Origin: Patescibacteria group bacterium
GTDB lineage: Bacteria; Patescibacteriota; Patescibacteriia; 2-12-FULL-60-25
Assembly (NCBI GenBank): GCA_023229665.1
Contig: JALNYW010000002.1
Location: 92,988 to 156,987, forward strand
Length of the DNA stretch: 64,000 nt
Direction of reading: 5' to 3'
Positions 1 to 64,000 of the stretch are shown in pieces. Both the position numbers and the translations under genes were made by a program. The notes under the pieces are model-generated. The model was not told where the DNA came from and searched no databases. It saw nothing but the letters and a program-made list of their open reading frames with translations. Every line of letters begins with the position of its first letter. Within the stretch, counting starts at the first letter, position 1.

Positions 1-28
1 ACCGGAGGGGTTTTATCTTTTAGATGGG

Positions 29-57
29 TTGACAATTACGTCTCGATGGGAATATCT
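29..57 (+). promoter_or_regulatory. sigma70-like promoter (TTGACA-17-ATATCT) upstream of the first ORF
   Basis: TTGACA at 29-34, 17-nt spacer, ATATCT at 52-57. Pattern only. Confidence 0.4.
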
Positions 58-109
58 TGCACCCGCGTTTCGAGAATAGATTCTACAAAAGAAGAAGGAT
101 AGGTGACCC

Positions 110-1117
110 GTGTACGCATTCAAGATGGACATGTTTTTTGTCGGAGTCGTTGTCTGCCTTCTCGCTGGCTGCACTCCGGGTGGCCTGCCTGCCGAGGACG
201 CGGCGATGAGCCGTGAAGATTCCGGCATGGCGATGGAGGACGCGGCGGTAATGCCGTCTGATTCGGCCACCGGGACCGACGCCGAATCCATCGCCTGGAC
301 GAGCTGTGAGATCAGCACTGGCGTCTGGAGCTTGTCCTACGTGCTCCAGGCCGGAAGCGATGCGCGGTGCAGCCCGCGCGAAGCCGTGACCGTGTGCTTG
401 TGCGATGCTGCCGCGGACCCTGCGCGTTGCTTGCATGACGCAAGTCTCGACGAGCTTACGATCTTGGCCGCTGGATCGGCTTGCGCTTCGCGCCCCGAAG
501 GTCCGAACGTTGACGAGGCCGTGACCCCGGCCTGTCTGTCCGAAACGACCTGCTGGCTGAGCCGTGGAGGGAGCGCGGCGACGCTCACGAAAGCGAGTCC
601 CGATTCGGCTCGAGGAATCGCTGAGAGCGGCTCCGTGTTGGGTGACCTCACGACCCTTAGTTGTGCGCATGATCTGACCGCATCGCTAGTCGCGTCGTCG
701 TGCCCTGATCCCTGCGCGGATCCGGAGTATATCGGTGTCGAGTGCAACCTGCCGGATGATATGGCGTACGCACGGGACGAGTTCCTGTGCGCGATGTCTA
801 TCAGCCATGATCGCTGGTTCGTCGGAACGGGTATCGAGACCAATGAGTATATTCGTGACTATCGGGATGTCCTTTACGCTGCTTTGAACTTCGCGCAATA
901 CAACGGAGGACTCTCCATTCCTCCGGATACGCTGATCGAGTTCACTTGCGGTCCCGAAGGAGCCTGCTGGTTCAACTGGTCGAATCTCGACAGCCACCAT
1001 TCGCGCTGTCGAGTCAGTTTCGCAGCTGATTGCAGTGAAGCGACGACCGAGTGCTGGCCGCCCGGGTCGGACACGCCGATCGTCACGATCGCCTACTACG
1101 CCTACGAACTCCCGTAG
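110..1117 (+). CDS. hypothetical Cys-rich acidic lipoprotein
   Basis: 335-aa ORF with GTG start 6 nt after AAGGATAGG. N-terminal hydrophobic segment ends in an LLAGC lipobox. Many Cys and Asp residues, very high GC3. No recognised domain. Start could instead be ATG 125 or 131. Confidence 0.55.
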   Translation: MYAFKMDMFFVGVVVCLLAGCTPGGLPAEDAAMSREDSGMAMEDAAVMPSDSATGTDAESIAWTSCEISTGVWSLSYVLQAGSDARCSPREAVTVCLCDAAADPARCLHDASLDELTILAAGSACASRPEGPNVDEAVTPACLSETTCWLSRGGSAATLTKASPDSARGIAESGSVLGDLTTLSCAHDLTASLVASSCPDPCADPEYIGVECNLPDDMAYARDEFLCAMSISHDRWFVGTGIETNEYIRDYRDVLYAALNFAQYNGGLSIPPDTLIEFTCGPEGACWFNWSNLDSHHSRCRVSFAADCSEATTECWPPGSDTPIVTIAYYAYELP

Positions 1118-1128
1118 CCACTGTCATT

Positions 1129-1150
1129 GACCCCAACCGGGGTCTTTTTA
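1129..1150 (+). terminator. intrinsic terminator
   Basis: Hairpin GACCCCaaccGGGGTC followed by TTTTT. Confidence 0.6.
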
Positions 1151-1235
1151 TTCCCGGGTTTTATCTTGACCGGGCGGCAATTTTCTGCCATTCTCGGCGC
1201 ATTCCGGCATGTCGTCGGGATAGGAGGATGTTCCT

Positions 1236-2636
1236 TTGATTCCGAGATATTCCAGTCCCGAAATGTCGGCCGTCTGGTCCGATGAGAACAAGTTCAAGAA
1301 GTGGCTCGAGGTCGAGCTCGCGGTCCTCAAGGTGCGCGAGAAGCGCGGCGAGCTTCCGGCCGGTACGGCCAAGGGGATCGCTCAGGCGACGTACGTCGAT
1401 GCGGTGATCGCGGAAGCGATCAACAACCGCGAGAAGGAGATCGGACATGATCTCAACGCATTCGTCGAGATCATGCGGATGCAGATCATCTCGCGAGCCG
1501 ACTACGAATCTGGCAACGGCGTGAAGGATGCGAGCTTCGAGGACTGCCTTCGTCGGGGCCATCCGCAGAAGTGGGACCACTTCTTCCACGAGGGGATGAC
1601 GAGCTACGACACCGAGGAGCCGGCCATGGCCCTGCTCTTCCGCGAGGCCGATCACGTCATCTTCGCGGGCATCAAGCGCGTCCAGGACGCGCTCGTCGAG
1701 CTTGCGAAGAAGCACCGCGGCACGCTCATGATTGGCCGCACTCACGGCCAGTGGGCGCAGCCGGTGACCTTCGGCAAGCGCTGCCTCGACTGGCTCGACA
1801 TGATGCAGCGCGCCGCGTTCCGCCTGGTCGAGTCGGCCCGTGAGGTCGGCGTGATGAAGCTCTCGGGCGCCGTGGGTTTCTACAGAACGCTCGGTTCCGA
1901 GATCGAGAAGGCTGTCGCCGAGGAGCTGGGGCTCGAGGTCGCGCCCATCGCGACCCAGATCATCCCGCTCGACCGTCGCGCCGCTCACGTGAGCTCGATT
2001 GCCGAGCTCGCGACCGTGATGGGCAAGATCAGCCGCGATCTCTGGCTCTTGAGCCAGAGCGAGATCGGGGAGGTGGCCGAGCCCTTCGGCAAGAAGCAGA
2101 AGGGTTCGTCGGCCATGCCGCACAAGAAGAACCCGATCACGCTCGAGAAGCTGTTCGGCCTTCCGCGGCATGTTCGCCACTGTGCGGCTTCGGTGCTCGA
2201 GAGCGTCGAGACGGCCCACGAGCGCGACATCAGCCACAGCTCGGTCGAGCGCATCGCGGTGGTCGACGCCTACGGGCTCACCGACCACCTGCTGCGCCAG
2301 CTCGCGCGCGTGCTCGAGGGGCTCCAGGTGTTCCCGGAGCGCATGCAGCAGAACCTTGATGCCACCAAGGAGGTCTATGCCTCCCAGGCGGTGCGGGATC
2401 TGCTCGGCCAGCATGGAGTGCCGGGCGAAACCGCGTACCGCTTCATCCAGCGGTGTACCTTCCTCACGCGCGAGAAGGACTGCACGTTCTCGGACGCGTT
2501 CCTGAACGCGGACGACGACGAAGTCCCGTACGATCAGCGCCGCGAGATCGGCGCCACGGAGGAATTCGACCGGGCCTTCGATCCCAAGTGGTGGGTCCGC
2601 CACGAGGGCGTCTACTACCAGCGCTTCGGTCTCTGA
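1236..2636 (+). CDS. purB: adenylosuccinate lyase
   Basis: N-terminus IPRYSSPEMSAVWSDENKF and fumarate-lyase signature SSAMPHKKNP. TTG start preceded by ATAGGAGGA. High GC3. Confidence 0.9.
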   Translation: MIPRYSSPEMSAVWSDENKFKKWLEVELAVLKVREKRGELPAGTAKGIAQATYVDAVIAEAINNREKEIGHDLNAFVEIMRMQIISRADYESGNGVKDASFEDCLRRGHPQKWDHFFHEGMTSYDTEEPAMALLFREADHVIFAGIKRVQDALVELAKKHRGTLMIGRTHGQWAQPVTFGKRCLDWLDMMQRAAFRLVESAREVGVMKLSGAVGFYRTLGSEIEKAVAEELGLEVAPIATQIIPLDRRAAHVSSIAELATVMGKISRDLWLLSQSEIGEVAEPFGKKQKGSSAMPHKKNPITLEKLFGLPRHVRHCAASVLESVETAHERDISHSSVERIAVVDAYGLTDHLLRQLARVLEGLQVFPERMQQNLDATKEVYASQAVRDLLGQHGVPGETAYRFIQRCTFLTREKDCTFSDAFLNADDDEVPYDQRREIGATEEFDRAFDPKWWVRHEGVYYQRFGL

Positions 2637-2649: not shown

Positions 2650-4428
2650 TTACCCGTTATTCGACTTCGCCAGCTCTTCCGTCAGGCGATTCCATTCCGC
2701 TTCGGTGTGCTGGATCATGGTTTCAAGCGATGACAGGCGCTTGGTACGTTCCAAATCAAATTTTGCCGGATCTTGCGTAAACAATTTCATGATGCCCGAA
2801 CGTTCTTCTTCCAATGAGTCGAGCTGCTTTTCGATTTTGGAAATCGCGCGCTTCAGCTCTTTCTGTTTTTCATGGCGTTCGGCTTTGCTCGTGCCCTTTT
2901 CGCGCTCTTGTTTTTCTTCCAGCTGTTCCTGTTTGGAGATGAGTCCCTCTTCCCTCGCGACATCGTAGACGTATTCTTCGTACGTGCCCGGATAAGAGCG
3001 GACCGTGCCGTCACGAACATCCAAAATGCGCGTCGCGACCAAGTTCACGAAGGTGCGCGAGTGGGAAATAAAAAGCACGGTGCCATTCCAGCGTCGCAAC
3101 GCGTTTCCGAGCGCTTCCACCGTCTCCAAATCCAGGTGGTTGGTCGGCTCGTCGAGGAGCAGGACTTCCGGACGCGATAACAAAAGCCCGGCCAGGACCA
3201 GCCGCGAGCGTTCTCCGCCCGACAATACGCTGATCGGTTTCTCCAAATCATCCTTTGGGAACAAAAAGTCGCCGGCCATGCGCATCAAATCCTCCCGTTC
3301 GGTGCCGGGCGTGGCCGTGCGTTCCAAATAATTCCAAACTGTGTCCGTCGGATGCAAAGTTTCCGACGCGTGTTGGTCGTAGAAACCGAGTTTGAGGCGG
3401 TTATTCCACGTGTAGGTCCCATCGAGTTTTTCGATGCGGCCCGCGAGCGTCTTCAAGAGCGTGGATTTACCTTTCCCGTTTTCTCCAAGGATGGCGACGC
3501 GCATTCCGCGATCAATCTCAAAGCTGATATCGCTCGCAATGACCCGATCCCCATACCCGATGGCCAAACGGAGGGCGCGCACGGCGAACTGCTTGCGATG
3601 TTCCACGGCCGGGATTCGGATTTTAACCGTCTTCAACGCGCTTGCGATATCGATCGTCTTCAATTTACGTAATTGCTTCATCTTTGACTGCGCTTGGGAG
3701 GCCTTGGACGCCTTGGCGCGGAACCGATTGATGAAAGACTCCAAATGTTTCTTCTGCGTCTCGATGTTTTGGTTGAATTTTACGTCGAGCGCGAGTTTTT
3801 CCTCCTTGTATTCAAGATACTCATTCACCGGGCGGGGGAAAAGGAAAAGTTTGCCGCGTTCGGCCTCCATGGTTTGCTCGCAGGTCTCCATCAAAAACTC
3901 ACGGTCATGCGACACGATGATGAAGGCGCCATTCCACTCCTGTAAAAAATGTTCCAAGAGGAGCTGGGTCTGCAAATCGAGGAAGTTGGTCGGCTCGTCG
4001 AGCAGCATCAGGTTCGGCTCATGCAAAAGCATGGCCGCCAACTTCACGCGCATGCGATACCCGCCCGACAAAGATTCGATCGGCACAAGCAGGCGTTCTT
4101 TTTTGATATCGAAACGTCCGGCCATTTTGGCGCAGGCCCATTCTTCCTTGCCGGAAGCGCGTTCGAGATAGGCGATGACGCTTTCGCCGGGTTCAAAGTC
4201 GTCATGCTGTTTGAGATACCCGAGCCGGCAGGCCGGATGGATGACAATTTCGCCCGCATCTTTTGCTTCACCACCGACGATCATGTGCAGCAAGGTGGAT
4301 TTTCCCGCTCCGTTGCGGCCGATGAAGCCGATTTTGTCGCCCTCCGAAATCGACACTGAGGCATTCTCAAACAGCACATGCGGGCCATGCGCCTTGTCGA
4401 GACCTTCAATGTGGAGGAGAACGCTCAT
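2650..4428 (-). CDS. ABC-F family ATPase (two ABC cassettes, no TM domain)
   Basis: Walker A GRNGAGKST and GENGKGKST, signatures LSGGYRMR and LSGGERSR, charged coiled-coil C-terminal tail. No SD. Confidence 0.9.
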   Translation of the reverse strand: MSVLLHIEGLDKAHGPHVLFENASVSISEGDKIGFIGRNGAGKSTLLHMIVGGEAKDAGEIVIHPACRLGYLKQHDDFEPGESVIAYLERASGKEEWACAKMAGRFDIKKERLLVPIESLSGGYRMRVKLAAMLLHEPNLMLLDEPTNFLDLQTQLLLEHFLQEWNGAFIIVSHDREFLMETCEQTMEAERGKLFLFPRPVNEYLEYKEEKLALDVKFNQNIETQKKHLESFINRFRAKASKASQAQSKMKQLRKLKTIDIASALKTVKIRIPAVEHRKQFAVRALRLAIGYGDRVIASDISFEIDRGMRVAILGENGKGKSTLLKTLAGRIEKLDGTYTWNNRLKLGFYDQHASETLHPTDTVWNYLERTATPGTEREDLMRMAGDFLFPKDDLEKPISVLSGGERSRLVLAGLLLSRPEVLLLDEPTNHLDLETVEALGNALRRWNGTVLFISHSRTFVNLVATRILDVRDGTVRSYPGTYEEYVYDVAREEGLISKQEQLEEKQEREKGTSKAERHEKQKELKRAISKIEKQLDSLEEERSGIMKLFTQDPAKFDLERTKRLSSLETMIQHTEAEWNRLTEELAKSNNG

Positions 4429-6894: not shown

Positions 6895-6928
6895 AAAAAA
6901 CCCCGACCAAAGGCCGGGGCATTTTTTT
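6895..6928. terminator. bidirectional terminator (small ORF / SOD gene)
   Basis: A6-CCCCGACCaaaGGCCGGGG-T7. Overlaps the SOD stop codon. Confidence 0.65.
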
Positions 6929-7505
6929 AACGGTAGCGCTCTTCAACTTTCTGCCAGTTCAGATTTTTCCAGAACGCTTCGACGTACTTTGCGCGTTCCG
7001 TCGGCTTGTAATCCACCGTGTAGGCGTGTTCCCAGACGTCGAGGGCGAACAGGATTTTCTGGCCGCCGAGTTGGCCGAGTTCATGATCGCTCACCCAGAC
7101 CGAGAGAAGGTTGCCATTGGTTTCGTCCTGGACGAGCAGAACCCAACCGATCCCGCGCATGACGGCCATGGCTGAGATCTGGTTTTTCCAAGCGTCGAAG
7201 GAGCCGTATTGCGATTCGAGCGCCATCTTCAAGGCGTCGTTTGAACCTTCGGCCTTTTCGAATTGCGAGAAGTAATACTCATGCAAACGCATGCCGTTGA
7301 ATTCGAACCCGAAGCGGCGCACCAGCTCCGAGAGCTCGATGGCCATGGCTTCGGCATTTTGTTTATGCTGTTCGATTTTTTGGAGCAGGGCATTCGAGTT
7401 CTTCACATAGCCCTGGTAGAGCTTGAGGTGCTCACTGATTTGGGTCTCGGACAGGCCGTCGAGGGCCCCGAGGGCAAAGGTCTTGGCTTCGTAGGATTTC
7501 AGCAT
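6927..7505 (-). CDS. Fe/Mn-family superoxide dismutase
   Basis: C-terminal signature DVWEHAY, overall SOD_Fe N and C layout, 192 aa. Metal specificity not determinable by eye. Confidence 0.9.
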   Translation of the reverse strand: MLKSYEAKTFALGALDGLSETQISEHLKLYQGYVKNSNALLQKIEQHKQNAEAMAIELSELVRRFGFEFNGMRLHEYYFSQFEKAEGSNDALKMALESQYGSFDAWKNQISAMAVMRGIGWVLLVQDETNGNLLSVWVSDHELGQLGGQKILFALDVWEHAYTVDYKPTERAKYVEAFWKNLNWQKVEERYR

Positions 7506-7620: not shown

Positions 7621-8142
7621 ATGCCGCTTTTGATCGAGTTCACGGATCCGGACATCGACGTGGAGGACATCGACGACCTCCAGGAAGATCGTCGCATCCG
7701 CCTTCGCGAGAGGGCGGAGATTCAGTCGAGCGGGAACCCCGGCTTCTTTCTGCGCTATGCGCACCTGCCGGATTACCTGTTCCAGGCCCCGAGGCTTCCC
7801 CCGGACCTGGAGGTCCGCTACAGCTACCGTTCCGACCTGCGGGACGACGGCCGCGCCTCCCAAGGCATGTACGAGGTCGAGGGCATCGCCCTTATGAAAG
7901 TGGAGCACGCCAAGGATTACGACCTGAAGACGATCTTCTCACGGGTCGTCATCATCGGCGAGATCGGCACGCCCCTGCAGACCATCTCGGATGCCTACGT
8001 CGCGCTGCGCGACGGCAAGCTCCGACCCTCCAAGGACTGGTCCAGTCCCGGTACGATCGCGGCGCCCGCGGCCGAGAAGAGCGAGGGCAGCGGCTCGCAC
8101 ACCCTCCCTCAGAAGGCCACGGCGGCGACGAAGGCGGCCTAG
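7621..8142 (+). CDS. hypothetical protein (173 aa)
   Basis: ATG preceded by GGAAGGAGG. High GC3. No recognised domain. Ala/Thr/Lys-rich tail. Confidence 0.55.
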   Translation: MPLLIEFTDPDIDVEDIDDLQEDRRIRLRERAEIQSSGNPGFFLRYAHLPDYLFQAPRLPPDLEVRYSYRSDLRDDGRASQGMYEVEGIALMKVEHAKDYDLKTIFSRVVIIGEIGTPLQTISDAYVALRDGKLRPSKDWSSPGTIAAPAAEKSEGSGSHTLPQKATAATKAA

Positions 8143-53871: not shown

Positions 53872-53875
53872 GAGG

Positions 53876-55382: not shown

Positions 55383-55384
55383 TA

Positions 55385-55788
55385 GGGGATGAATCAGCAT
55401 CGACGACGGTCGTTCCACAATCTGGCAAGCCGAGCGTGTCGAATCCGCTCGTAAATCATGACCGACGCATGACAACTGCCAATGTCATCTCTAAGGTTCG
55501 CAGCGCGATCGCTTCGGCGTTCAGCGTTCCGACCTTCGCCCCGTCCTTCGCCTAAGGCGAACTGACGAGCCGGTCTGCCACTCCTTGATCCGGGGAATGG
55601 ACAGGCCGTCACTGACGGATCTAGACGATGCATCTGCCTTCGATGCATCGCGACGGCTTGAAGGCGTAGATGACGCGCGCTCGTCCGTTCCCTGACGCGT
55701 CGTCGAACCTCCTGAGCGGACCAAGCTTGTGAATGACGGGTTGCGGACAGCTGTTCGGACGCGGGTGCGATACCCGCCATCTCCACCA
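55385..55788 (+). ncRNA. ssrA: tmRNA (404 nt)
   Basis: 5' GGGGATG pairs with 3' CATCTCC-ACCA, including the G3:U alanine identity pair. T arm GCGGGTGCGATACCCGC. Candidate tag ORF at 55478-55555 encodes ANVISKVRSAIASAFSVPTFAPSFA, then a stop. Confidence 0.9.
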
Positions 55789-55798
55789 TCGCATACTA

Positions 55799-56359
55799 AT
55801 GCGCATCCACCATCGCCGCCGCGGCGGCCAACAGAAGAAAGAGGAGAAGATCCTGTATAACGTGAACGAGCAGATTCGCGCGCCCCAAGTGCGCGTGATC
55901 GACGAGAACGGCGCTCCCATGGGGGTGCTCGACACGTCGCAAGCGCTCGCGACCGCCCAGGAACGCGGCTTCGACCTGGTCGAAGTCTCTCCAAAGGCTG
56001 AACCGCCCGTCTGCAAAATGCTCGACTACGGTCAGTTCAAATACCAGAAGGAGAAGGAAATCCGTTCCCAGAAGGCCCACTCCAAAAAGGTGGACGTGAA
56101 GGGGATTCGCCTGTCGGTAAAGATGGGCGTCGGTGACTTCGACTTCCGCGTGGATCAAGGCAAGAAGTTCTTGTCCGAAGGCCACAAGCTCAATATCGAG
56201 ATCCGCCTGCGCGGACGCGAGAAGGAGCATGGGGACATCGCCAGAACCAAGATCCAAGAGTATCTGGCCAAAGTCGGCCAGGAATACGAACTTTCCATCG
56301 AGCAACCTATTACCCGTTCGGGCGGAAACGTCACCGCCATTGTCGGCCGCAAGTCCTAA
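55799..56359 (+). CDS. infC: translation initiation factor IF-3
   Basis: VNEQIRAPQVRVIDENG and EVSPKAEPPVCKMLDYGQFKYQKEK. ATG 55799 lies only 10 nt after the tmRNA 3' end. A non-ATG start further in is possible. Confidence 0.88.
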   Translation: MRIHHRRRGGQQKKEEKILYNVNEQIRAPQVRVIDENGAPMGVLDTSQALATAQERGFDLVEVSPKAEPPVCKMLDYGQFKYQKEKEIRSQKAHSKKVDVKGIRLSVKMGVGDFDFRVDQGKKFLSEGHKLNIEIRLRGREKEHGDIARTKIQEYLAKVGQEYELSIEQPITRSGGNVTAIVGRKS

Positions 56360-56368
56360 CCTATCCAT

Positions 56369-56563
56369 ATGAAGCAAAAGACCTCCAAGACCGTCGCCAA
56401 GCGCATGAAGATGACCAAGAGCGGAAAGCTTTTGAAGCGCAAAGGCGGACAGGGCCATTTCAATAGCCGTGAATCCGGCAACACGACGCGCAACAAGCGC
56501 CGTGACCTTGAAGTTTCCGGTTCGTACACCCGCAATATTAAGCAGCTCATGCCCCACGCCTAA
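56369..56563 (+). CDS. rpmI: 50S ribosomal protein L35
   Basis: MKQKTSKTVAKRMKMTKSGKLLKRK. 64 aa. Confidence 0.92.
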   Translation: MKQKTSKTVAKRMKMTKSGKLLKRKGGQGHFNSRESGNTTRNKRRDLEVSGSYTRNIKQLMPHA

Positions 56564-56569
56564 CCTCCT

Positions 56570-56908
56570 ATGCCACGTGTAAAGCGCGGTACTCACCGCA
56601 TCAAGCGCCGAAAGAACATCCTTGCCCGTACCAAGGGCATGATGTGGGGTCGCAAGTCCAAGATCACGCTCGCGAAGACGGCGGCCACCAAGGCCGGCAA
56701 GAACGCGTATGTCGGCCGCAAGCTGAAGAAGCGTGACAACCGCGCCCTCCAGCAGGTCCGCATCAACGCCGCCGCCCGTTTGAACGGCACCACCTACTCG
56801 AAACTCATGGGTTCGCTCAAGGCCCGCAAGATCGAACTCGACCGCAAGGTCCTGTCCCAGCTCGCGGCCCAGCACCCCACGGTGTTCGCCAAGTTGGTCA
56901 AAGCCTAA
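56570..56908 (+). CDS. rplT: 50S ribosomal protein L20
   Basis: MPRVKRGTHRIKRRKNILARTKG. 112 aa. Confidence 0.93.
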   Translation: MPRVKRGTHRIKRRKNILARTKGMMWGRKSKITLAKTAATKAGKNAYVGRKLKKRDNRALQQVRINAAARLNGTTYSKLMGSLKARKIELDRKVLSQLAAQHPTVFAKLVKA

Positions 56909-56920
56909 GTTCAGCACAAA

Positions 56921-56945
56921 ACGATCCCCACGGGGGTCGTTTTTG
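56921..56945 (+). terminator. intrinsic terminator after rplT
   Basis: ACGATCCCCacgGGGGTCGT followed by TTTT. Confidence 0.65.
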
Positions 56946-56966
56946 TGTTAGAATGGTCCCGAATAT

Positions 56967-59900
56967 ATGCCCCGCAAGATGTATAGGAATGTCGAAGACG
57001 TTCCGCAGCCGGAAGAACGACCCGGTTCAGGCACACCGCGCTCGGCGAAAGAAGCCGCGCTCGCCCGTATGGCCGAGACCAAGCGGAATGTCCAGGGACA
57101 AAAAGCCCGGATGCAAGAAGAGATGAAGCGCCGCAAAGAAGCGGCTGAGGATTATCCTGAAATTGTCGAGCAGGTTGAAATGGAAGCCGAAGAAGGTAAG
57201 GCCTTGGCGGAAGAAGCGGAGCAAATTGAAACCGCGCAAGCGATCGAGCGTCGTTCGAAGTCAAAAAAGAAAGAAGAAACGCTTTCAGTTGGAGAAGCGC
57301 GTGCACGCTTTGAAAAAATCGAAAAAGATTTGGCGGAGATGGGCGTGACCTCGTTCGCTGATAAGATGAATGATCCTGAATGGGTGAAGGCTGATGCCGC
57401 GATGCGCCATGCCGAACGCGCGGGTCGCGCGGAGACGGGCAAGCGTAAGGTCGCGGAGTATAAAAAAATCCAGGAACTCGAAGCTGAGAAGGCCGACAAT
57501 CTGAAGCGCATGCAGGAAATGGGCGGCGTGTGGGGAGGCGAGTCTTATTTCTTATTGAGTGAACGCAACGAAGAAATTGAAGCTGAGTTGGCGAAGTTGG
57601 GAGGCCGGTCGAAGGAAAAGAAAGCGAAGGCCGTCGAAGCGCCGATGACGGAAGAGATGATGGTCGCCGGCGAGCCCACGCCCGAGGACCGCGTCGCCGA
57701 CGCCCGCAAGACGATCGATTTCATGAACGGGTACGAGCAAGAGATCGTCGCCCGTCAGAGAGCCGTTCAGGCGGAGCTGAAAAAGCACGGCATCAAGGAT
57801 GCGGCGCAGATCGATGCCGAGATGGAAGTAATTTCGCCGGAGCTTCGTGAAAAATCCATCGGTCTCAAGCCGGACATTTGGTACAAGATGAAGCGTCTTG
57901 GCCGCAATTTAATGGGTCTTGAGCGTCCGCCGGAAGTGAAGCAGTTGCTGAAGAAGTACGCGGAACTGGAAGGCGAAATGAACGAACAATTGCACAAGCG
58001 CCGCGAGGCCGAAGCGGAATTAATGGCCGCTCATGCCGCGGCCGGCCATGAAGTAAGCACCGGGACCATCTCTACGGCCGCCCTTCGCGCGATGGAGCGC
58101 CGCGTGCGTTCCGGTGGCGGCGATGGCGGCTTGGATGTATCCAGCTTGCTCAACAAGGTAATTCCTGCCGGCGCGGATCAGCTCCATGTCGAGCAAGAAT
58201 TGGAATCGCTTAAGCACATTGGAGAAGGGAGCCTTCAAAAAGAATTGGCCGCCGTGCGTGCCTTGAGAATGCTCGAAGAAGATATCCAGGACGCCATGCA
58301 GAATGTGGCATCGAAAAAAGATGAAATGACATTGGAGGATGCTCAGATGTATAAGGATCGCTTGCAGGAATTGCAGACGCGCGTCACGAATTTGGACAAC
58401 GAAGCGGGCAAATCAAAAGAAGCGGCCGAAGCAGCCAAGAATACCGAAGCGGCTCTGGCCCAGTATCGCCGCATGGTAAATACGGCCGTCGCGGATTTGC
58501 AGCGCGGCGTGCGTGAAAGCGGCAAAGGCTCCCGTCCCGGTTCGGTGGTCGGCATGCGCGCGGGAACCAAGGGAACCTACGGCGCTTCGACCCCTGACCG
58601 CCGCGTGGTGTCGCTCTCGAAGATGGAAACCGCGGATACGAAAGAACGGAAGGAGAGCGAAGCGGCCAAGGCGGCCGAGCGCGTGAACAAGGACGTGCAG
58701 ATGTACCGCTCGATCAAGTGGCGCAAGGAATTGATCGATACCATCAACTCAAACGAAGCCGTGCGCTCCGCCATGCATGCGGTGTATGAAGCGTATAAGA
58801 AGCGCGCCCAAGAAATGATGGAGCAGGGCGAGTTGAATCTCACGACCGGCAGTCCGGATCCGGCCTTGGATTACGCGCTCAACTTGTATCGCTTGTATGC
58901 GCGCAAGGAAAACGGCAAGCATCAATATAGCGAGAAGATTTGCCAGGCGGCATCGGAGGAGATCAACCACACCGACGAATTGCTCGGCGCGCAATGGGAT
59001 ACGGGCCGCACGACGGACCGTTTGGTCAGCGCCTTATTGAGCGGCCTGCCTTCGGTGATGGTCGAGCCGGGGTATGCGGCCGAAGCGGCGGCGAAAAAAG
59101 AAGAGGAAGAAGTAGAGCTTCAGGACTCTGACCTTGAAGAGGTGGTCGAAGAGCCGATCCCGTTGAAGCGGCTTAAGCCCCAAAGACCCTCGCTCGAAAT
59201 TCCCACGACCGAAGTCCGTGAGCGCATTGATCGGGAAGCTCGTGAGTCTTTCGAGGCTTCGCTTACCGAAACCACGCCCGAACAGCCGCTTCCGCACATT
59301 AAGCGCGCCTTATCCGAAGAGGAACAGGAAGCTGCCGAAGAAGCCGGCATTCCTTCGGTTCAAGAATTGGCCGCCATGGGGAAGCGCGAAGAGGCTCCGG
59401 CATCTTCCAACGAAGATTTGATCAATATGCCTTCGGCTTCGGTTGAGCCGGTGATTGAGCAAAAACCGGAAGCCGAAATTCCGCGCGAACGTTACGAGGA
59501 GATCAGGGAGGTTTGGAGCGCGCTTCGCAAGGATTTGAACGAAAGGGTCGCGACGGAACGCGGTTCCCTCAGGAAAAAGATCGGGGAGCTGGAGGGCCTG
59601 GTACGGGCTCTTCCGCAAACAGATACGATACGCATCGCGGGATTGGCCGAAGTCCAGAAGTTCCGCGAACAGCTTCGACAGGGAGAGGTTATCCGTCGCC
59701 AAAAAGAGCGCGCGCTCTATCCGACCGAAGAGACGTTGAAGTCCATGCGCCGACGCATCAATGGTCTCCGGAACAATGAAGCCAAGATGAATGAACTATC
59801 AGTTAAGCTGACGGGTGTGGCCGGAAATTCGTCGGCGGAAAAATTGCTCAACCTATTCCGCAGCTATCAGATGGCCAGTCCGAGCGGAGTCAGGAAAGCC

Positions 59901-60059
59901 GCTTACCTGAACCAGTTGAATAGCGTGCGCGCCATCTTGGGCCTGGATGCCTTTGAAACGGCCGAACCCGAAACGCCGCCGGCCGAAGATGAAGGGCAGG
60001 TTATTTCCCTGGCTGATGCTCGCGCCGCCCGCGAAAAGAAGAAGAAAAAAGGAGCATAG
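56967..60059 (+). CDS. 1030-aa highly charged Glu/Lys/Ala-rich coiled-coil ORFan
   Basis: No TM segment or signal peptide and no recognised domain. TGtTAGAAT ends 12 nt before the ATG, with no SD. Confidence 0.72.
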   Translation: MPRKMYRNVEDVPQPEERPGSGTPRSAKEAALARMAETKRNVQGQKARMQEEMKRRKEAAEDYPEIVEQVEMEAEEGKALAEEAEQIETAQAIERRSKSKKKEETLSVGEARARFEKIEKDLAEMGVTSFADKMNDPEWVKADAAMRHAERAGRAETGKRKVAEYKKIQELEAEKADNLKRMQEMGGVWGGESYFLLSERNEEIEAELAKLGGRSKEKKAKAVEAPMTEEMMVAGEPTPEDRVADARKTIDFMNGYEQEIVARQRAVQAELKKHGIKDAAQIDAEMEVISPELREKSIGLKPDIWYKMKRLGRNLMGLERPPEVKQLLKKYAELEGEMNEQLHKRREAEAELMAAHAAAGHEVSTGTISTAALRAMERRVRSGGGDGGLDVSSLLNKVIPAGADQLHVEQELESLKHIGEGSLQKELAAVRALRMLEEDIQDAMQNVASKKDEMTLEDAQMYKDRLQELQTRVTNLDNEAGKSKEAAEAAKNTEAALAQYRRMVNTAVADLQRGVRESGKGSRPGSVVGMRAGTKGTYGASTPDRRVVSLSKMETADTKERKESEAAKAAERVNKDVQMYRSIKWRKELIDTINSNEAVRSAMHAVYEAYKKRAQEMMEQGELNLTTGSPDPALDYALNLYRLYARKENGKHQYSEKICQAASEEINHTDELLGAQWDTGRTTDRLVSALLSGLPSVMVEPGYAAEAAAKKEEEEVELQDSDLEEVVEEPIPLKRLKPQRPSLEIPTTEVRERIDREARESFEASLTETTPEQPLPHIKRALSEEEQEAAEEAGIPSVQELAAMGKREEAPASSNEDLINMPSASVEPVIEQKPEAEIPRERYEEIREVWSALRKDLNERVATERGSLRKKIGELEGLVRALPQTDTIRIAGLAEVQKFREQLRQGEVIRRQKERALYPTEETLKSMRRRINGLRNNEAKMNELSVKLTGVAGNSSAEKLLNLFRSYQMASPSGVRKAAYLNQLNSVRAILGLDAFETAEPETPPAEDEGQVISLADARAAREKKKKKGA

Positions 60060-60158: not shown

Positions 60159-60716
60159 GTGGCAAGAGATGTTCGTTTCAAGGGGGAAGACCCCGTACGC
60201 GATTGCGAGCGCTTTCTCGCATTCCTTAGGGAGGCCTGCCCGCCGGTAACCGCCGGCTTGCGCGAAGGTCTGGCGCCGTTGCCCGCCCAGGTCCGACTGG
60301 TATTCCTCCAGATGCTCTCGCATCTGGTGCGCTTCGCCCCGAGCCATTCGTTCGGACCCTCATCCGACTTCACCGATCTCAGCGGGAAGCGTTATTACGC
60401 CAACCGCAGGCTCATCGAACGCCTGAGGCGCCGTGACGAGTTTTGCGGGCTGGAGGTCGGGTACATCCTCGAACAGCTCGAGTGCCTGCATCGGGGCATC
60501 GAGATCTCGTCGGGTCCGCAGGAGCTGGCCTACAACTTCGCCGCCACACTGATGGTGCGGCTGCTCGGCCATCTCATCCGCGCCGAAGCCGGGATTTCCA
60601 TCGTGCCGGACCTGCCCAAGATGGCGTCGGACAAGGCGAAGCCGCTTCCGTGCATCCCCCCGCCGCCTCCGCGTCTCGCGAAGGTCCTGCCGTTCCCCAA
60701 GAAACGGCCTTCATGA
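60159..60716 (+). CDS. hypothetical protein (185 aa)
   Basis: TTGACA at 60097-60102. GAAAGGAGGTG SD and GTG start. High GC3. Pro-rich tail. Terminator CCCGCctccGCGGG-T5. Confidence 0.5.
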   Translation: MARDVRFKGEDPVRDCERFLAFLREACPPVTAGLREGLAPLPAQVRLVFLQMLSHLVRFAPSHSFGPSSDFTDLSGKRYYANRRLIERLRRRDEFCGLEVGYILEQLECLHRGIEISSGPQELAYNFAATLMVRLLGHLIRAEAGISIVPDLPKMASDKAKPLPCIPPPPPRLAKVLPFPKKRPS

Positions 60717-61957: not shown

Positions 61958-61966
61958 AAAAATCGT

Positions 61967-62578
61967 ATGATCTTAAAAGAACATCCCGTCGCCCTTCTCC
62001 GCCGCTCCTGGCCCGCCCTTCTGTTCGGCGGTCTGGCTGGCGCGCTTTTAGCCGCGCTTCTGTCGTTTACGCAACCGCTCGAGTATTCGTCGACCGTTCG
62101 CTTGTTGATCACCCAGCCGGGAGCCACGAATACCGATCCCTACACCATCCTCAAATCGAACGAACGCATTGCCCAGAACCTTTCGCAATTGCTTTACACC
62201 TCCAGTTTCTTTGAGAATATCCTGACTCAAGCTGAGGGCATTGACCGTGAGTATTTCCCGGCGGACGAATATGACCGCCGCCGCGCCTGGTCCCGTTCCA
62301 TCGGAACGACGGTGGAACCGGGTTCCGGGCTCATGCTCGTCACGATCTTCCATCCAAATCGAACCCAGGCTCATTCCTTGGTCCAGGCTGCGACGCAGGA
62401 GTTGGCGAAACAGGCCCCGAATTTCTTTGGGTACTCCGTCCGAGTCCAGGTGATCGATGCTCCGCTTGATTCCCGCTGGATTGCCCGGCCGAACTTCCTC
62501 AATAATGCGTTGGCAGGGTTGGTTCTTGGCTCTTTGCTTGGTTTGCTCTGGATGATTGCCAACCGCGAAAAGATCTAA
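61967..62578 (+). CDS. Wzz-like (chain-length-determinant topology) membrane protein
   Basis: N-terminal TM ALLFGGLAGALLAALLSF, followed by TQPLEYSSTVRLLI, and a C-terminal TM LAGLVLGSLLGLLWMI. Confidence 0.55.
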   Translation: MILKEHPVALLRRSWPALLFGGLAGALLAALLSFTQPLEYSSTVRLLITQPGATNTDPYTILKSNERIAQNLSQLLYTSSFFENILTQAEGIDREYFPADEYDRRRAWSRSIGTTVEPGSGLMLVTIFHPNRTQAHSLVQAATQELAKQAPNFFGYSVRVQVIDAPLDSRWIARPNFLNNALAGLVLGSLLGLLWMIANREKI

Positions 62579-62664
62579 AAAATGTTCGTTTTTTAACAGG
62601 TTTTCATGGAAAAGGCCTAATCCTAGGCCTTTTTTCTTATAAAGCCTTGCAAAACAAATGTTTG

Positions 62665-62693
62665 TCTATAAGGCTTGACAAAAGCGTCATTTT
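62665..62693 (+). promoter_or_regulatory. promoter TTGACA-17-TATTGT with TGn extension
   Basis: TTGACA 62665-62670, 17-nt spacer ending in TGG, TATTGT 62688-62693. Confidence 0.55.
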
Positions 62694-62699
62694 GTGGTA

Positions 62700-63024
62700 T
62701 TGTAATCCGTTCTTTAAATGGCTAATCGTAGCCATACGACAGGAAATCAAGCCGTTCCGTCCCCACCATGCGCATGGCGGGAAGCGGGACGGCTTGAGGG
62801 CCGGTCGATATGGAGATTCCCTCTCCTGCTCCTTCGACATTACGGTCACTAGAACAAAGTTTCCTGCCTCGGCTTTCGAGGCAGAAAGGAGGTCGTAGCC
62901 TTTTCGTTCGGTTTGGGACTAAAAATCCCGGGCCGAGCGGAAGCTCGGCTTCCTGAATCAAGCTCCCGTCTCTTCACCCGGCGTCGCATACGCGGCGTCT
63001 TCACCTGGCCATAGGAGGCCTGTC
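62700..63024 (+). ncRNA. ~325-nt multi-hairpin leader or independent ncRNA (unassigned)
   Basis: Consecutive hairpins: ATGGCTAatcgTAGCCAT; a ~49-nt imperfect hairpin CAAGCCGTTCCGTCCCCACCATGC/GCATGGCGGGAAGCGGGACGGCTTG; CTGCCTCGgcttTCGAGGCAG; GCCGAGCggaaGCTCGGC. No credible ORF. Confidence 0.4.
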
Positions 63025-64000
63025 ATGACGAAGAATCTCTGGATGATGGTCGCGAGCGCGACCCTGGCTCTCTCCCTCGCTTCGACGGCGCAGGCGCAGG
63101 ACTCGTGTCCGGCGCACGCGCACCTCCGGGCGGAGGTTCGTGCCTGCGGCGCGAGCGGCGCGGACTTCGACTGCACGTGCGTCTGTGACGCGGGCTACAG
63201 CCCGCGTGACGGCGGCGTCCCGTCGGCGTCCAACCCCTGCGAGCGCAACGAGCCCTCCTGGGGCTCGTACAGCGATCCGCTGTGCGCCTTCGGCGCGGAG
63301 CGGGGCGCGAACGGCGAGTGCATGTGCCCTGCGTCCCTCGGGTCGCGGCGCGCGCGTTCGCTCGTGATCGTCACGCGTGACTTCGCCGAGTCGATCGCGG
63401 ACCAGATCGAGAACTTCGACTCGGTCCGTCGCGGTCGTGGCGTCGTGGCCCTGCAGGCCTGCATCGATCCGCTGGCAACGGCGGGTGCGGACGGGTCTGC
63501 TCAGGCGCTGCTGGTCGATGCGATCGACCAGCGCACGCGCATCCTCTGCGGTTCCGCGGAGGGAGCGAGCGACGAGCAGGTGCTCGCCGATTGCCGCGCG
63601 ACGCGCGAGCTGATCGAGAGCATCCGCGGCATGCGTGCCGGCCAGGTCACGATCCACCACGGTGATCGCGACTACACGGTGCAGGAGTTCGTCGATAGCG
63701 TGCTGGTCCCTCTCTTCGGAGAGATCCAGTCGCGACTCGCCGCGCTCGAGGCACAGGTCGGTGATCACGAGGAGCGGCTCGACGAGCTCGAGCCTCGCGT
63801 CGCGGCGCTCGAGGCGCGTCCTGCGCCTTCGCCCGATGCGTCGGGTTCCGACGGTCGCAATTCGTTCACCCTCGCGGTGGGCGCGTTCGGCCTCGTCGGC
63901 ATCCACACGGCAGGTCCCATGACGGGAGCGGGCGGGCTGTCGCTCGCCCTGCACTACCGTCCGGACCTCGCGCCGCTCGACATCTACGCGCGAGCGGGGA
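63025..64000 (+). CDS. secreted Cys-rich protein, partial (runs off the window end)
   Basis: Hand translation is open from ATG 63025 to the end of the window. ATAGGAGG SD. Signal peptide MTKNLWMMVASATLALSLASTAQA. Many Cys residues in the first ~100 aa. Coiled-coil LAALEAQVGDHEERLDELEPRVAALEA. Missed by the ORF track because there is no stop codon in the window. Confidence 0.6.
   Translation, partial: MTKNLWMMVASATLALSLASTAQAQDSCPAHAHLRAEVRACGASGADFDCTCVCDAGYSPRDGGVPSASNPCERNEPSWGSYSDPLCAFGAERGANGECMCPASLGSRRARSLVIVTRDFAESIADQIENFDSVRRGRGVVALQACIDPLATAGADGSAQALLVDAIDQRTRILCGSAEGASDEQVLADCRATRELIESIRGMRAGQVTIHHGDRDYTVQEFVDSVLVPLFGEIQSRLAALEAQVGDHEERLDELEPRVAALEARPAPSPDASGSDGRNSFTLAVGAFGLVGIHTAGPMTGAGGLSLALHYRPDLAPLDIYARAG

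Follow-up and report, generated by a model that had tools for sequence, protein, structure and literature searches.

Gene content of the window

The window, i.e. the whole 64-kb stretch of DNA analysed here, belongs to an Uhrbacteria-like bacterium of the Patescibacteria (CPR) with 59% GC. This assignment is based on the homologues of purL, cca, thrS and hyp453, which bear the names Uhrbacteria or Patescibacteria; the 64-kb window contains no 16S gene. Two classes of genes are found along it. Class B, led by a Shine-Dalgarno (SD) sequence, consists of purB, purM, purL, a pyrE-like phosphoribosyltransferase (PRT), lineage-specific lipoproteins and small proteins. Class A consists of core housekeeping and cell-envelope genes, without SD. 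They are distributed as follows:

110..1117, +: Cys-rich lipoprotein (lipobox LLAGC), class B; SD AAGGAtAGGTGA, TTGACA 81 nt upstream of the start, GC3 0.70
1236..2636, +: purB (adenylosuccinate lyase), class B; TTG start, GGAGG at 8 nt and TTGACC at 70 nt upstream, GC3 0.88
2650..4428, -: ABC-F ATPase, class A; no SD, GC3 0.68
4511-4852, +: hyp113a, class B; membrane protein with three 12-aa repeats, SD and upstream TTGAC
4898-5239, -: hyp113b, class B; SD and upstream TTGAC
6927..7505, -: Fe/Mn superoxide dismutase (SOD), class A; no SD
7621..8142, +: hyp173, class B; SD GGAAGGAGG, TTGACA 62 nt upstream, GC3 0.87
8213..10814, -: hflX-cca operon, class A; no SD, TANNNT ending 9 nt before the cca ATG
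10965-11201, -: hyp78, class B; GGAGG SD
11581-12399, +: hyp272 lipoprotein, class B; GGAGG SD
12465-12815, +: hyp116, class B; GGAGG SD
12859..21115: class A block (sigma factor, alpha-2-macroglobulin-like protein, Memo, host-attachment-like protein, gpsA); no SD, starts coupled or overlapping; gpsA of leaderless look (TATGAT - 6 nt - ATG)
21168-21425, -: hyp85, class B; SD, TTGACA, own terminator, GC3 0.82
21537-22331, -: PRT, class B; SD, TTGACA, own terminator, GC3 0.88
22442-22516: tRNA-Arg, adjoining hyp85 and PRT
22588..23537, +: hyp158 (no SD), paired with hyp123
23166-23537, +: hyp123; SD dG -14, terminator at 23536
23565..27159: class A block (rnc, nusB, rpmF, ndk, mntH); no SD; mntH of leaderless-type layout (TATACT - 7 nt - ATG)
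27205..28566, +: hyp453, class B; GTG start, GGGAGG SD, own terminator, GC3 0.79
28863-30239, -: hyp458 lipoprotein, class B; weak SD
30399-31511, +: purM, class B; GGGAGG SD, promoter TTGACT-16-TAAGGT, GC3 0.93
31580: tRNA-Phe, 3' of purM
31734..33233, +: EEP-family nuclease/phosphatase and hemerythrin; no SD, GC3 0.57 and 0.62, the lowest of the window
33260..33859, -: hyp199, class B, between tRNA-Phe and tRNA-Gly; GAGGAGG SD (dG -15), own terminator
34123..43000: class A block (hyp430, PUA-methyltransferase, tRNA-Pro, GT4, DUF4012, DUF11); no SD; hyp430 with TATACT - 7 nt - ATG
43048..43329, +: hyp93, class B; GAGGTGA SD, TTGACA 45 nt upstream, GC3 0.83
43396..47242, -: purL cassette, class B; 1262-aa FGAM synthase, weak SD (GAAAGGA), GC3 0.87
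47283..60059: class A block (GGDEF-like protein, hyp429, thrS, hyp254, AI-2E transporter, smpB, tmRNA, infC-rpmI-rplT, hyp1030); no SD, translation genes with raised GC3
60159..60716, +: hyp185, class B; GTG start, SD AAAGGAGGTGA (dG -16), TTGACA 62 nt upstream
63025..63999, +: hyp324, Cys-rich secreted protein, class B; TAGGAGG SD, GC3 0.85, truncated by the window edge

Initiation signals and codon usage

A strong GGAGG SD precedes 17 to 19 of the 53 curated genes; class B amounts to about one third of the genes and class A to about two thirds. Anti-SD duplex energies range from -10 to -16 kcal/mol at the class-B starts listed below and are weaker than -5 for most other genes. Their distribution is bimodal and is associated with GC3 and with GC at two-fold sites. 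The first-pass annotation had credited nearly all class-B genes with a strong SD; in purL and 28863-30239(-) it is weak (-7). The motif GGAGG-N4-8-DTG occurs 46 times in the window (29 +/- 5 in shuffles). Almost all class-B starts listed in that annotation were recovered, on the forward strand (110, 1236, 4511, 7621, 11581, 12465, 23166, 27205, 30399, 43048, 60159, 63025) and on the reverse strand, where the genes start at 5239(-), 11201(-), 21425(-), 22331(-) and 33859(-); ORFs 6728 and 11265(-) are doubtful gene calls. The alternation it described at the level of single genes corresponds to 18 A/B switches along the 53 genes. Starts other than ATG are used by 6 of 19 class-B genes versus 2 of 34 in class A.

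Most class-B genes carry, as had been proposed, a TTGAC -35 box, 45-81 nt upstream of the start (12/19 versus 3/34 in class A, p=5e-5), and their own terminators: terminator-like hairpins lie 3' of each of the seven class-B genes located in the 20-36 kb interval. A TANNNT box ending 5-12 nt before the start is present in 11 of 23 class-A units (3.0 +/- 1.6 in shuffles) and in none of the 19 class-B units. Its position close to ATG in about half of the SD-less units suggests leaderless or near-leaderless mRNAs; the other class-A genes are operon-internal or have SD-free leaders. Class A would lack SD largely because of such leaderless or very short-leader transcripts and of operon-internal genes.

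The scattering of SD-led, high-GC3 genes among SD-less ones is real: SD-led genes have a GC3 of 0.80, the remaining genes one of 0.70 (Mann-Whitney p=6e-5). The link of SD to codon usage also holds with all candidate starts treated alike and only the 3' portion of every ORF used for the codons (p=1.7e-5; Fisher 2e-5). The difference in GC3 is not located at four-fold sites; in two-fold degenerate codons GC is 0.77 in SD-led genes versus 0.55 in the rest (p=2e-6). A unimodal GC3 distribution had been named as a ground for rejecting the two classes. Plain GC3 is weakly bimodal (a BIC tie), and two-fold sites are strongly so (BIC -66.8 versus -45.8). Fifteen class-B genes occupy the top of the first principal component of RSCU, and GC1 is likewise higher in class B (0.66 versus 0.61). 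Intergenic GC is about equal beside class B (0.52) and class A (0.53), and the offset is therefore limited to coding sequence. The description of class B as using almost only G/C-ending codons was right in direction and overstated in extent: GC3 spans 0.69 to 0.93 within the class, and the SD-led genes at 110 and 12465 have class-A-like codon usage. Three of the four GC samples counted by hand in the annotation were exact, and the fourth was off by one base.

A GC shift in the same direction affects rplT, rpmI, infC and rplS in every genome, without SD; rplT has a class-B-like GC3 of 0.86. Four-fold codon preferences are mostly common to classes A and B. In these families the preference of class B is unlike that of translation genes: in small samples, CGG and CCG reach 0.24 and 0.71 in purB, purM, purL and PRT versus 0.00 and 0.15 in infC, rpmI, rplT and rpmF. 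Class B is enriched in both G- and C-ending codons, whereas translation genes prefer C only, and its GC offset exceeds that of ribosomal-protein genes.

Conservation and turnover in related genomes

Eight syntenic relatives were compared (L084, L085, L086, L088, L089, L093, L094 and L095; locus GC 0.39-0.62). In the positional orthologs of class-B genes the SD is mostly kept, TTGAC is often kept, and GC3 is among the highest of the locus. Across hosts of 0.39 to 0.62 GC, ortholog GC3 tracks that of the host, and its offset is always positive. When 75 database-called genes of L084-L089 are pooled, SD-led genes deviate at two-fold sites by +0.146 and the others by -0.006 (p=3e-5). In 3 of the 5 class-A genes compared, the window and L085 agree at four-fold sites about as often as composition predicts; saturation of synonymous sites is thus largely reached, and the offset therefore represents an equilibrium. 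In L003, L004 and L006, SD-led genes with elevated GC3 are again purM, purD, purL and purB; in L002 and L005 the SD-codon association is weak or absent. Since related genomes retain the class split, it would be a built-in trait of the lineage, and neither a recent import nor an assembly error.

Class-B genes occupying the same slot in related Uhrbacteria are hyp453, hyp173, hyp272, hyp85, hyp199, hyp93, hyp185, PRT, purB and purM. In L004 and in a JGI 964-kb contig purB also adjoins ABC-F, whose ortholog in L089 is 83% identical and likewise without SD. The hyp173 slot between cca and SOD holds orthologs in L088 and L089 (proteins 38-48% identical, SD and TTGAC kept, GC3 0.88), and a gene is present there in the JGI contig. 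These two relatives also have hyp272 with SD, and TTGAC was noted upstream in L089. The region of hyp85 and PRT has positional equivalents in L085 and L086. In L084, L085 and L086, hyp453 adjoins mntH and is each time SD-led with elevated GC3, and hyp199 has SD-led equivalents of 25-58% identity, also between tRNA-Phe and tRNA-Gly. The orthologs of hyp93 and hyp185 in L093 are both 46% identical with SD and TTGAC kept, and GC3 is 0.81 for hyp93. The gene in the hyp93 position of L095 (GC 0.39) has the highest GC3 of its locus and no detectable similarity to hyp93. Synteny extends to the class-A blocks 12859..21115 (L085, L086, L089), 23565..27159 (L085, L086, JGI 964-kb contig) and 34123..43000 (L084, L086, L093). 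Relative to L093, protein identity is 46% for class B and 76-95% for class A; class B evolves far faster.

The sole class-B gene without known function put through a homologue search, hyp453, yielded 14 clusters among 5.8 billion proteins; most are without taxon name, and those with names are Patescibacteria or Uhrbacteria only. Its pairwise identities are compatible with those of its class-A neighbours, and therefore nothing points to transfer.

Class B is at the same time the flexible portion of the genome, quick to evolve and subject to genuine gain and loss of genes (purL, purM with hyp458, PRT, purB). Compared with L093, the purL cassette forms a clean ~3.9-kb indel, and purL is absent from this site in L095. 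Its leader of ~58 nt is conserved with L002, where a 75%-identical purL lies in an unrelated context. Apart from an Uhrbacteria sequence of 75% identity, identity is at most 55% among the best 80 loci from 185,579 species genomes; the nearest purL sequences are those of Patescibacteria. In the purL tree the clade of the window holds, besides Patescibacteria, sequences of two high-GC actinomycete metagenome assemblies, and other CPR purL genes fall elsewhere; the tree shows several origins of purL within CPR. The site of purM and hyp458 holds both genes in L084 and neither of them in L085 or L086; L086 also lacks PRT, and L089 lacks purB and the hyp113a/hyp113b pair. Two insertions follow tRNA genes: one of hyp158 and hyp123 behind tRNA-Arg, missing from L085 and L086, and one of EEP with hemerythrin behind tRNA-Phe, missing from L084, L085 and L086. 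The second is the foremost candidate for having been acquired recently. Class-B cassettes are not flanked by repeats, att sites or mobility genes.

Origin of the two gene classes

We favour, with about even confidence, an explanation in which the two classes are native, conserved expression architectures, with a maintained codon enrichment and selection acting via SD-led translation. In class A, a -10 box (TANNNT) near ATG would produce leaderless or near-leaderless mRNAs in about half of the transcription units. Each class-B gene would be a stand-alone cassette with a TTGAC -35 box ~45-80 nt upstream, a leader of ~30-40 nt, a terminator of its own, and GGAGG 4-8 nt ahead of an ATG, GTG or TTG start; such cassettes may be gained, lost or relocated singly. 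Their enrichment in C/G-ending codons, mainly in two-fold families, would be a maintained equilibrium and not a vestige of foreign origin. What keeps G and C at the ends of these codons is most likely selection at the codon level, tied to SD-led translation: the SD would ensure efficient ribosome loading and hence stronger selection on class-B mRNAs, pushing the same way as in genes for ribosomal proteins. The idea of a native class under different rules, already raised in the first-pass annotation, fits the data, with the amendments that class B is also variable and fast-evolving and that the SD-less state of class A would largely be leaderless or operonic.

Some observations go against this explanation: the four-fold families in which class B is unlike translation genes, an offset larger than that of ribosomal-protein genes, the raised GC1, and a fast protein evolution that is atypical of highly expressed genes. 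Presence or absence of cassettes among close relatives, the mixed purL tree, and the weak or absent association in L002 and L005 also go against it.

Class B could also be a pool of genes mobile among Uhrbacteria by recombination, SD and promoter making each cassette portable, with GC raised by GC-biased gene conversion and not by translation selection. We consider this unlikely. It would account for the variable presence of purL, purM with hyp458, PRT and purB, for the L002 purL in its unrelated context, for extremely divergent proteins in conserved slots, for GC1 rising along with GC3, for G- and C-ending codons being both enriched, and for an offset positive in every host at any GC. However, flanking non-coding DNA is not enriched in GC, the cassettes lack flanking repeats, att sites and mobility genes, hyp453 identities are compatible with those of its class-A neighbours, and the conservation of SD and TTGAC is left unexplained. 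The known published effects of gene conversion on bacterial GC3 also fall far below +0.15 to +0.3.

Repeated, independent and fairly recent import from donors outside the CPR that have a high GC and use SD (e.g. a host bacterium), leaving genes whose composition has still to drift to that of the recipient, seems improbable. The class-B genes of known function are nucleotide-synthesis enzymes, which are not known from most CPR bacteria, and most others have no family match in the libraries searched; several adjoin tRNA genes, and the clean purL indel and the purL tree, with several CPR origins and two actinomycete sequences, are in keeping with import. But homologues from outside the CPR are never closer than those from within it (best 80 loci for purL, named clusters for hyp453), orthologs sit in the same slots of relatives, and their GC3 follows host GC with a constant positive offset at saturated synonymous sites. 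Four-fold preferences are largely common with class A, flanks are not GC-rich, and the clearest lineage-specific insertion, EEP with hemerythrin, has low GC3 and no SD. The annotation's alternative of many acquisitions thus encounters same-slot orthologs and same-lineage homologues, and recent high-GC import as the general cause of class B is not supported by these comparisons. For hyp453, hyp173, hyp272, hyp93 and hyp185 it is largely refuted. A chimeric contig or binning artefact joining two organisms, for which nothing speaks beyond uneven composition, is vanishingly improbable and was ruled out, in agreement with the earlier view that the pattern does not look like a single island or a chimera, because three independent assemblies (Logan, JGI, ENA) span A/B junctions at 99.95-100% identity (Logan contig L001, 100% over 41053-52193; JGI contigs L082 and L083, 99.95-100% over 26934-29104 and 24763-26005), contigs L090-L092 bear the window-end proteins, and the eight separately assembled relatives interleave alike.

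Genomes mixing leaderless and SD-led genes form the 'leaderless transcription' group of GeneMarkS-2 (PMC6028130) and include Mycobacterium (PMC3898074, PMC4633059; survey PMC3160421). Like the window, they have a -10 box directly 5' of ATG on many first-in-operon genes and SD on others, and leaderless starts strongly favour ATG in both. A full-text literature search found no report of this architecture in Patescibacteria. Nor is it otherwise known from there, and in such mixed genomes initiation mode is not known to be strongly and bimodally tied to synonymous codon usage or -35 type. Just 48% of Parcubacteria 16S sequences were found to carry the anti-SD motif (PMC9297842). The lineage of the window likewise tends to SD-free initiation, but this organism keeps a functional-looking SD on a defined third of its genes and has, for this reason, presumably retained the anti-SD.

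Acquired islands are said, following Lawrence and Ochman, to be recognised by atypical GC3 and to drift toward host composition over time. Class B shares with them atypical GC3, tRNA proximity and variable presence among relatives. It differs in consisting of single genes with typical flanks and no mobility genes, in an offset persisting at equilibrium in orthologs, and in lineage-restricted homologues. The E. coli gene classes I, II and III, reportedly defined from codon usage by Medigue et al. in 1991, are likewise interleaved on one chromosome along the first codon-usage axis, one group being highly expressed or horizontally acquired. In contrast, class B fits neither the ribosomal-protein four-fold pattern nor a foreign origin; it is also set by initiation mode (SD-led versus leaderless or SD-less) and promoter type, and class membership is kept in orthologs across genomes of 39% to 62% GC.

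Two gene classes in the window

The window has a GC content of 59.1% and contains about 53 protein genes, four tRNAs and one tmRNA; Rfam returned tRNAs and tmRNA only, and gave no riboswitch match ahead of any pur gene. Protein sequences are divergent, and Pfam scans gave no family for many of them. Among the 80 best loci of 185,579 species genomes, the top match of the FGAM synthase gene purL (in the cassette at 43396-47242, minus strand) is a Candidatus Uhrbacteria metagenome-assembled genome at 75% identity; the next matches are Patescibacteria (53-55%) and all others are at about 52% or less. Homologues of cca, thrS and hyp453 (hypN is a protein of no known function, N its length in aa) are also named Uhrbacteria or Patescibacteria, so the source is an unusually GC-rich CPR bacterium.

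Nineteen stand-alone genes led by a Shine-Dalgarno (SD) sequence form class B, and 34 SD-less genes form class A. Start sites were refined by inspecting every candidate start, and the standard CACCUCCUUU tail was assumed as anti-SD sequence, the window having no rRNA gene. Anti-SD duplex energies fall into two groups: 17 genes are at -10 kcal/mol or below and most others are weaker than -5. Nearly all of the 17 carry GGAGG 4-8 nt from the start, as do 12 of the 19 class-B genes, and the window has more GGAGG-N4-8-start matches (46) than shuffled sequence (29 +/- 5).

The first-pass annotation had described SD-led, high-GC3 genes alternating with SD-less genes at single-gene resolution. Both aspects hold: GC3 is 0.80 in SD-led genes and 0.70 in the rest (p=6e-5), and there are 18 class switches along the 53 genes. 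The SD-codon association is kept in a retest free of start refinement, which takes the best SD over all starts in the first 40 codons and codon usage from the 3' part only (p=1.7e-5); there, SD-led genes make up 12/18 of the GC-rich genes versus 3/35 of the others (Fisher 2e-5). Three of the four hand GC counts given earlier are exact, the fourth being wrong by one base. Among the class-B starts listed, 23166 is real, and 6728 and 11265 (minus strand) are doubtful. The genes at 110 and 12465 are exceptions, SD-led yet with class-A-like codons; further exceptions are the weak SD of purL and of 28863 (minus strand), and rplT, which is GC3-rich without an SD.

A mixture model of plain GC3 gave no clear decision between one and two components, and two-fold and four-fold sites were therefore analyzed apart. 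Two-fold-site GC has a clearly bimodal distribution (BIC -66.8 for two components versus -45.8), with 0.77 in SD-led and 0.55 in SD-less genes (p=2e-6); the four-fold families are nearly alike in both classes (GC4 0.82 versus 0.79, not significant). The codon shift is not a uniform GC shift: two-fold families, Ile and Leu differ strongly between class B and class A (TAC 0.79 versus 0.41, AAG 0.80 versus 0.51, GAG 0.67 versus 0.35, TTC 0.93 versus 0.63, TTG 0.08 versus 0.29), and the first principal component of RSCU places fifteen class-B genes on top. By eye from the gene table, neither gene length nor strand accounts for the split. A regional GC effect was ruled out, intergenic GC beside class B being equal to that beside class A (0.52 versus 0.53). 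The antisense ORFs lying over purL (44134-47265, plus strand, 1043 aa) and over purB (1161-2603, minus strand, 480 aa) are by-products of extreme GC3, not genes.

Within class A, four-fold sites are GC-rich (about 0.79) and two-fold sites balanced (about 0.55), and A-ending Glu, Lys and Gln codons are often preferred. One idea for this contrast is a mutation spectrum combining GC-biased transversions with AT-biased transitions, another is constraint by the tRNA pool.

The classes also differ in their promoters. As the first-pass annotation had proposed for class B, a TTGAC -35 box and own terminators are found: a TTGAC at 45-81 nt ahead of the start is present in 12/19 class-B versus 3/34 class-A genes (57 such pentamers occur in the window on both strands), and a terminator-like hairpin directly follows 7/7 class-B genes within 20-36 kb. 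In class A, TANNNT ends 5-12 nt before the start in 11 of the 23 genes heading a transcription unit (3.0 +/- 1.6 in shuffles), against 0/19 in class B. Examples are mntH and hyp430 (TATACT, 7 nt, ATG) and gpsA (TATGAT, 6 nt, ATG), and the arrangement is kept in orthologs, e.g. hyp430 in the related locus L084 and gpsA in L085. Judged from the sequence, TANNNT near the ATG would mark leaderless or near-leaderless mRNAs. The other class-A genes either sit inside operons, their starts overlapping or abutting, or are preceded by leaders that lack an SD. Leaderless initiation depends on a 5' AUG, in line with the concentration of non-ATG starts in class B (6/19 versus 2/34).

The functions assigned in class B are purB, purM, purL and a pyrE-like phosphoribosyltransferase (PRT). 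The remainder have no known function, with no match in Pfam, NCBIfam or PHROGs; several of them are lipoproteins or secreted Cys-rich proteins. Lipoprotein signal peptides are present in several class-B proteins, and the Cys content of the class is fourfold that of class A (1.7% versus 0.4%; e.g. 110-1117, 11581-12399, 28863-30239, 63025-63999). For hyp453, a PDB profile search gave no significant match, and an AlphaFold model from 14 sequences has a mean pLDDT of 49. The ortholog of hyp272 in the related locus L088 is a MopE-like copper-binding protein by Pfam.

The class junctions are reproduced in independent assemblies, which rules out an assembly chimera, as the first-pass annotation had already argued from the alternation itself. 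A Logan contig is identical (100%) to window 41053-52193 and a JGI contig each covers 24763-26005 and 26934-29104 (99.95-100%); together these contigs span the junctions DUF11|hyp93|purL|GGDEF and mntH|hyp453|hyp458. Window proteins of the hyp1030-hyp185-trypsin-hyp203 stretch are also encoded on other short contigs from Logan and ENA. An mntH-anchored scan of metagenomes yielded a pair of short contigs, both identical to the window, and no relatives.

Conservation and turnover of class-B genes

The sample compared is one 64-kb window and stretches of about 10-24 kb from relatives. Eight relatives with DNA were found through homologues of hyp453, cca and thrS, with locus GC of 0.595 (L084), 0.489 (L085), 0.553 (L086), 0.616 (L088), 0.576 (L089), 0.583 (L093), 0.569 (L094) and 0.393 (L095); a further relative, on a 964-kb JGI contig (P0026), contributed gene order only. 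The class-A backbone is syntenic in the relatives: A2M-Memo-hostatt-gpsA (A2M, alpha-2-macroglobulin-like; hostatt, host-attachment-like), rnc-nusB-rpmF-ndk-mntH, MTase-GT4-DUF4012-DUF11, GGDEF-hyp429-thrS and smpB-infC-rpmI-rplT. Class-B genes occupy defined slots in it.

Slots of class-B genes in the relatives (window coordinates in brackets)
hyp453 (27205-28566, plus strand), no known function: after mntH
hyp173, no known function: between cca and SOD
hyp272, no known function: beside the sigma factor
hyp85, no known function, and PRT (21537-22331, minus strand), pyrE-like phosphoribosyltransferase: after gpsA
hyp199 (33260-33859, minus strand), no known function: between tRNA-Phe and tRNA-Gly
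hyp93, no known function: after DUF11
hyp185, no known function: after hyp1030
purB, purine synthesis: beyond ABC-F

In these slots the strong SD is mostly kept, TTGAC at 47-77 nt is often kept, and GC3 is at or near the top of the gene's own locus (0.88 versus about 0.68 in L089, 0.88-0.92 versus about 0.57 in L094, 0.65-0.75 versus about 0.43 in L085, 0.47 versus about 0.27 in L095). A pooled test used 75 genes of L084-L089 with database gene calls and no start choices of our own: two-fold GC minus the locus median is +0.146 in SD-led genes and -0.006 in the others (p=3e-5), and TTGAC is present in 8/15 versus 5/60. Farther out in the Patescibacteria (L003, L004, L006), it is again purM, purD, purL and purB that combine an SD with elevated GC3; in L004, purB adjoins ABC-F as in the window.

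In the comparison of the window with L085, four-fold-site identity equals or comes close to the compositional expectation for mntH, MTase and gpsA; rnc and ndk exceed it somewhat. Synonymous sites are thus largely turned over, and the GC3 of each gene is therefore near equilibrium. The base composition of the clade (0.39-0.62 among the relatives) has shifted strongly and fairly quickly. L095 (0.393) and the window (0.591), with 73% thrS identity and local synteny, are about 20 GC points apart.

The hyp453 family comprises 14 clusters among 5.8 billion proteins, the only taxa named being Patescibacteria and Uhrbacteria, and in pairwise identity it is in line with the class-A genes beside it. 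The first-pass annotation had left a choice between many acquisitions from a high-GC donor and a native gene class. Because the closest purL and the named hyp453 homologues belong to the same lineage and class-B genes occupy the same syntenic positions, which it had itself named as a refutation, recent acquisition from multiple donors is refuted as the general explanation. Class B is, with good confidence, a native and conserved gene class rather than a product of recent horizontal transfer or a chimera.

Within this conserved arrangement, class B is the flexible fraction. In the same genome pair its proteins are far more divergent than those of class A: against L093, hyp93 and hyp185 are 46% identical and class-A proteins 76-95%; against L084, hyp199 is 58% and hyp430 98% identical. 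Present in place in relatives are hyp453, hyp173, hyp272, hyp85, hyp199, hyp93 and hyp185; missing are purM and hyp458 (at their site in L085 and L086), PRT (L086) and purB (L089). Gain or loss also affects purL, which with its own terminator and promoter region forms a clean indel of about 3.9 kb relative to L093 (thrS 90% identical). The indel is bordered by the hyp93 terminator and the GGDEF promoter (window 43330-43395 and 47185-47282, L093 5917-5984) and has no flanking repeats; purL is also missing at the equivalent site in L095. More generally, a repeat search found no repeat family flanking the class-B cassettes and no attC-like or REP-like repeats, and neither an integrase nor a transposase turned up when 50 of the 53 called genes were scanned with Pfam. 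In these Patescibacteria, purine-synthesis genes occur one by one as self-contained cassettes that are gained and lost, which bears on the evolution of metabolic capacity in CPR bacteria.

In L002, which carries the 75%-identical purL, the gene lies in an unrelated context; synteny with the window is restricted to purL and a tRNA-Pro-like stretch, and the SD-codon association is weak. In a neighbour-joining tree without support values, the window purL groups with L002-L006, L030 and L041 (all Patescibacteria) and with two high-GC actinomycete metagenome-assembled genomes, other CPR purL genes being placed elsewhere. Judging by this tree, transfer forms part of the deep history of purL. The purL leader (window 47185-47242, about 58 nt) aligns with L002 inside a 77%-identical nucleotide alignment; the two share CGACAACC and an equally spaced weak SD (GAAAGGA), and no Rfam family matches. 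By this alignment, the leader may be a conserved regulatory one.

The clearest lineage-specific insertions are an EEP-family nuclease/phosphatase gene with a hemerythrin gene after tRNA-Phe, and hyp158 with hyp123 after tRNA-Arg. In GC3 (0.57 and 0.62) the EEP and hemerythrin genes (31734-33233) rank below all other genes of the window, and both are SD-less. Only the window genome has them between tRNA-Phe (31580-31654) and hyp199; in L084, L085 and L086 tRNA-Phe is directly followed by a hyp199-like gene. This pair, which the first-pass annotation had put in class A, looks like the real recent insertion.

Cause and significance of the codon offset

Codon-level selection linked to SD-led translation would keep class-B codons G/C-ending, an explanation to which we give close to an even chance. 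It is favoured because the offset is limited to coding sequence (flanking intergenic GC 0.52 versus 0.53), because rplT, rpmI, infC and rplS shift in the same direction in every genome from 39 to 59% GC (they are raised at two-fold sites in the window, L089 and L093-L095), and because strong SD and consensus -35 boxes count as expression signals in their own right. A simple reading of class B as highly expressed genes is weakened, since its offset exceeds that of ribosomal-protein genes, its four-fold preferences differ from those of translation genes, GC1 is raised too and the proteins evolve fast. The slow protein evolution expected of a highly expressed class is not seen, class B diverging much faster than class A. 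At four-fold sites the translation genes, a small set (n=4), prefer C-ending codons (CGG 0/49, CCG 0.15); the class-B nucleotide-synthesis genes use G-ending codons freely (CGG 0.24, CCG 0.71).

GC-biased gene conversion, acting on a flexible class-B gene pool in recombination-prone slots, would fit the offset larger than that of ribosomal-protein genes, the free use of G-ending four-fold codons in nucleotide-synthesis genes, the raised GC1 and the fast protein evolution. It leaves the unchanged flank GC and the conserved expression signals unexplained, and we regard it as unlikely. Recurrent import of class B from GC-rich donors is highly improbable: the closest purL is from Uhrbacteria (75%, others at most 55% among the best 80 loci) and the named hyp453 homologues are Patescibacteria or Uhrbacteria, the GC offset is not decaying and persists with synonymous sites saturated and host GC of 0.39-0.62, flanking intergenic GC is not raised, and no mobility signatures were found (no flanking repeats, and no integrase or transposase among the 50 of 53 genes scanned).

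Codon-usage classes inside a single genome are established, and this lineage is thought to be losing SD-dependent initiation. Genomes mixing leaderless and SD-led genes are likewise established (PMC6028130, PMC3160421, PMC3898074), and a reduced anti-SD use has been described in Parcubacteria (PMC9297842). What is new is how tightly initiation mode, promoter type and codon usage are coupled, bimodally and gene by gene, and that positional orthologs keep this coupling throughout a CPR clade of 39-62% GC. Full-text searches found no earlier account of such coupling in Patescibacteria. Composition-based screens would call a third of the genome foreign, wrongly for most of those genes according to synteny, which bears on estimates of horizontal transfer and on bin decontamination in CPR genomes. 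The clade offers a natural case in which initiation mode, promoter architecture and synonymous codon usage co-vary by gene and are kept over deep divergence and a 23-point GC range. A link between initiation and codon selection, or between recombination and GC, is directly testable in such a lineage.

A more speculative reading, which we consider unlikely, casts the SD-led cassettes as a translational regulon under separate control in a presumably host-attached CPR bacterium. Core leaderless genes would be translated constitutively, access to the anti-SD or 30S-dependent initiation would act as a global switch, and the codon dialect would be tuned to that pathway. The switch would govern fast-evolving surface lipoproteins, small proteins and nucleotide-synthesis enzymes. 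If true, Uhrbacteria of 39-62% GC would share a conserved, genome-wide expression system with two channels, made up of initiation mode, promoter type and codon usage together.

Minor features

The window and its relatives contain the following additional features.

4690-4805, in hyp113a, a small membrane protein: a 36-nt unit in three perfect tandem copies, encoding ERPPDPLEMSDA three times
24859-25161, L32 homologue: unusual in its length of 100 aa; matches Pfam weakly
25265-25852, NDK: Pfam model matched in two stretches, which suggests an insertion
54942-55382, smpB: immediately upstream of the tmRNA
55385-55788, tmRNA: predicted tag peptide long and atypical (ANVISKVRSAIASAFSVPTFAPSFA)
L088 18253-18329 and L089 14669-14745, tRNA-Ile (UAU): between ABC-F or purB and a pseudouridine synthase gene
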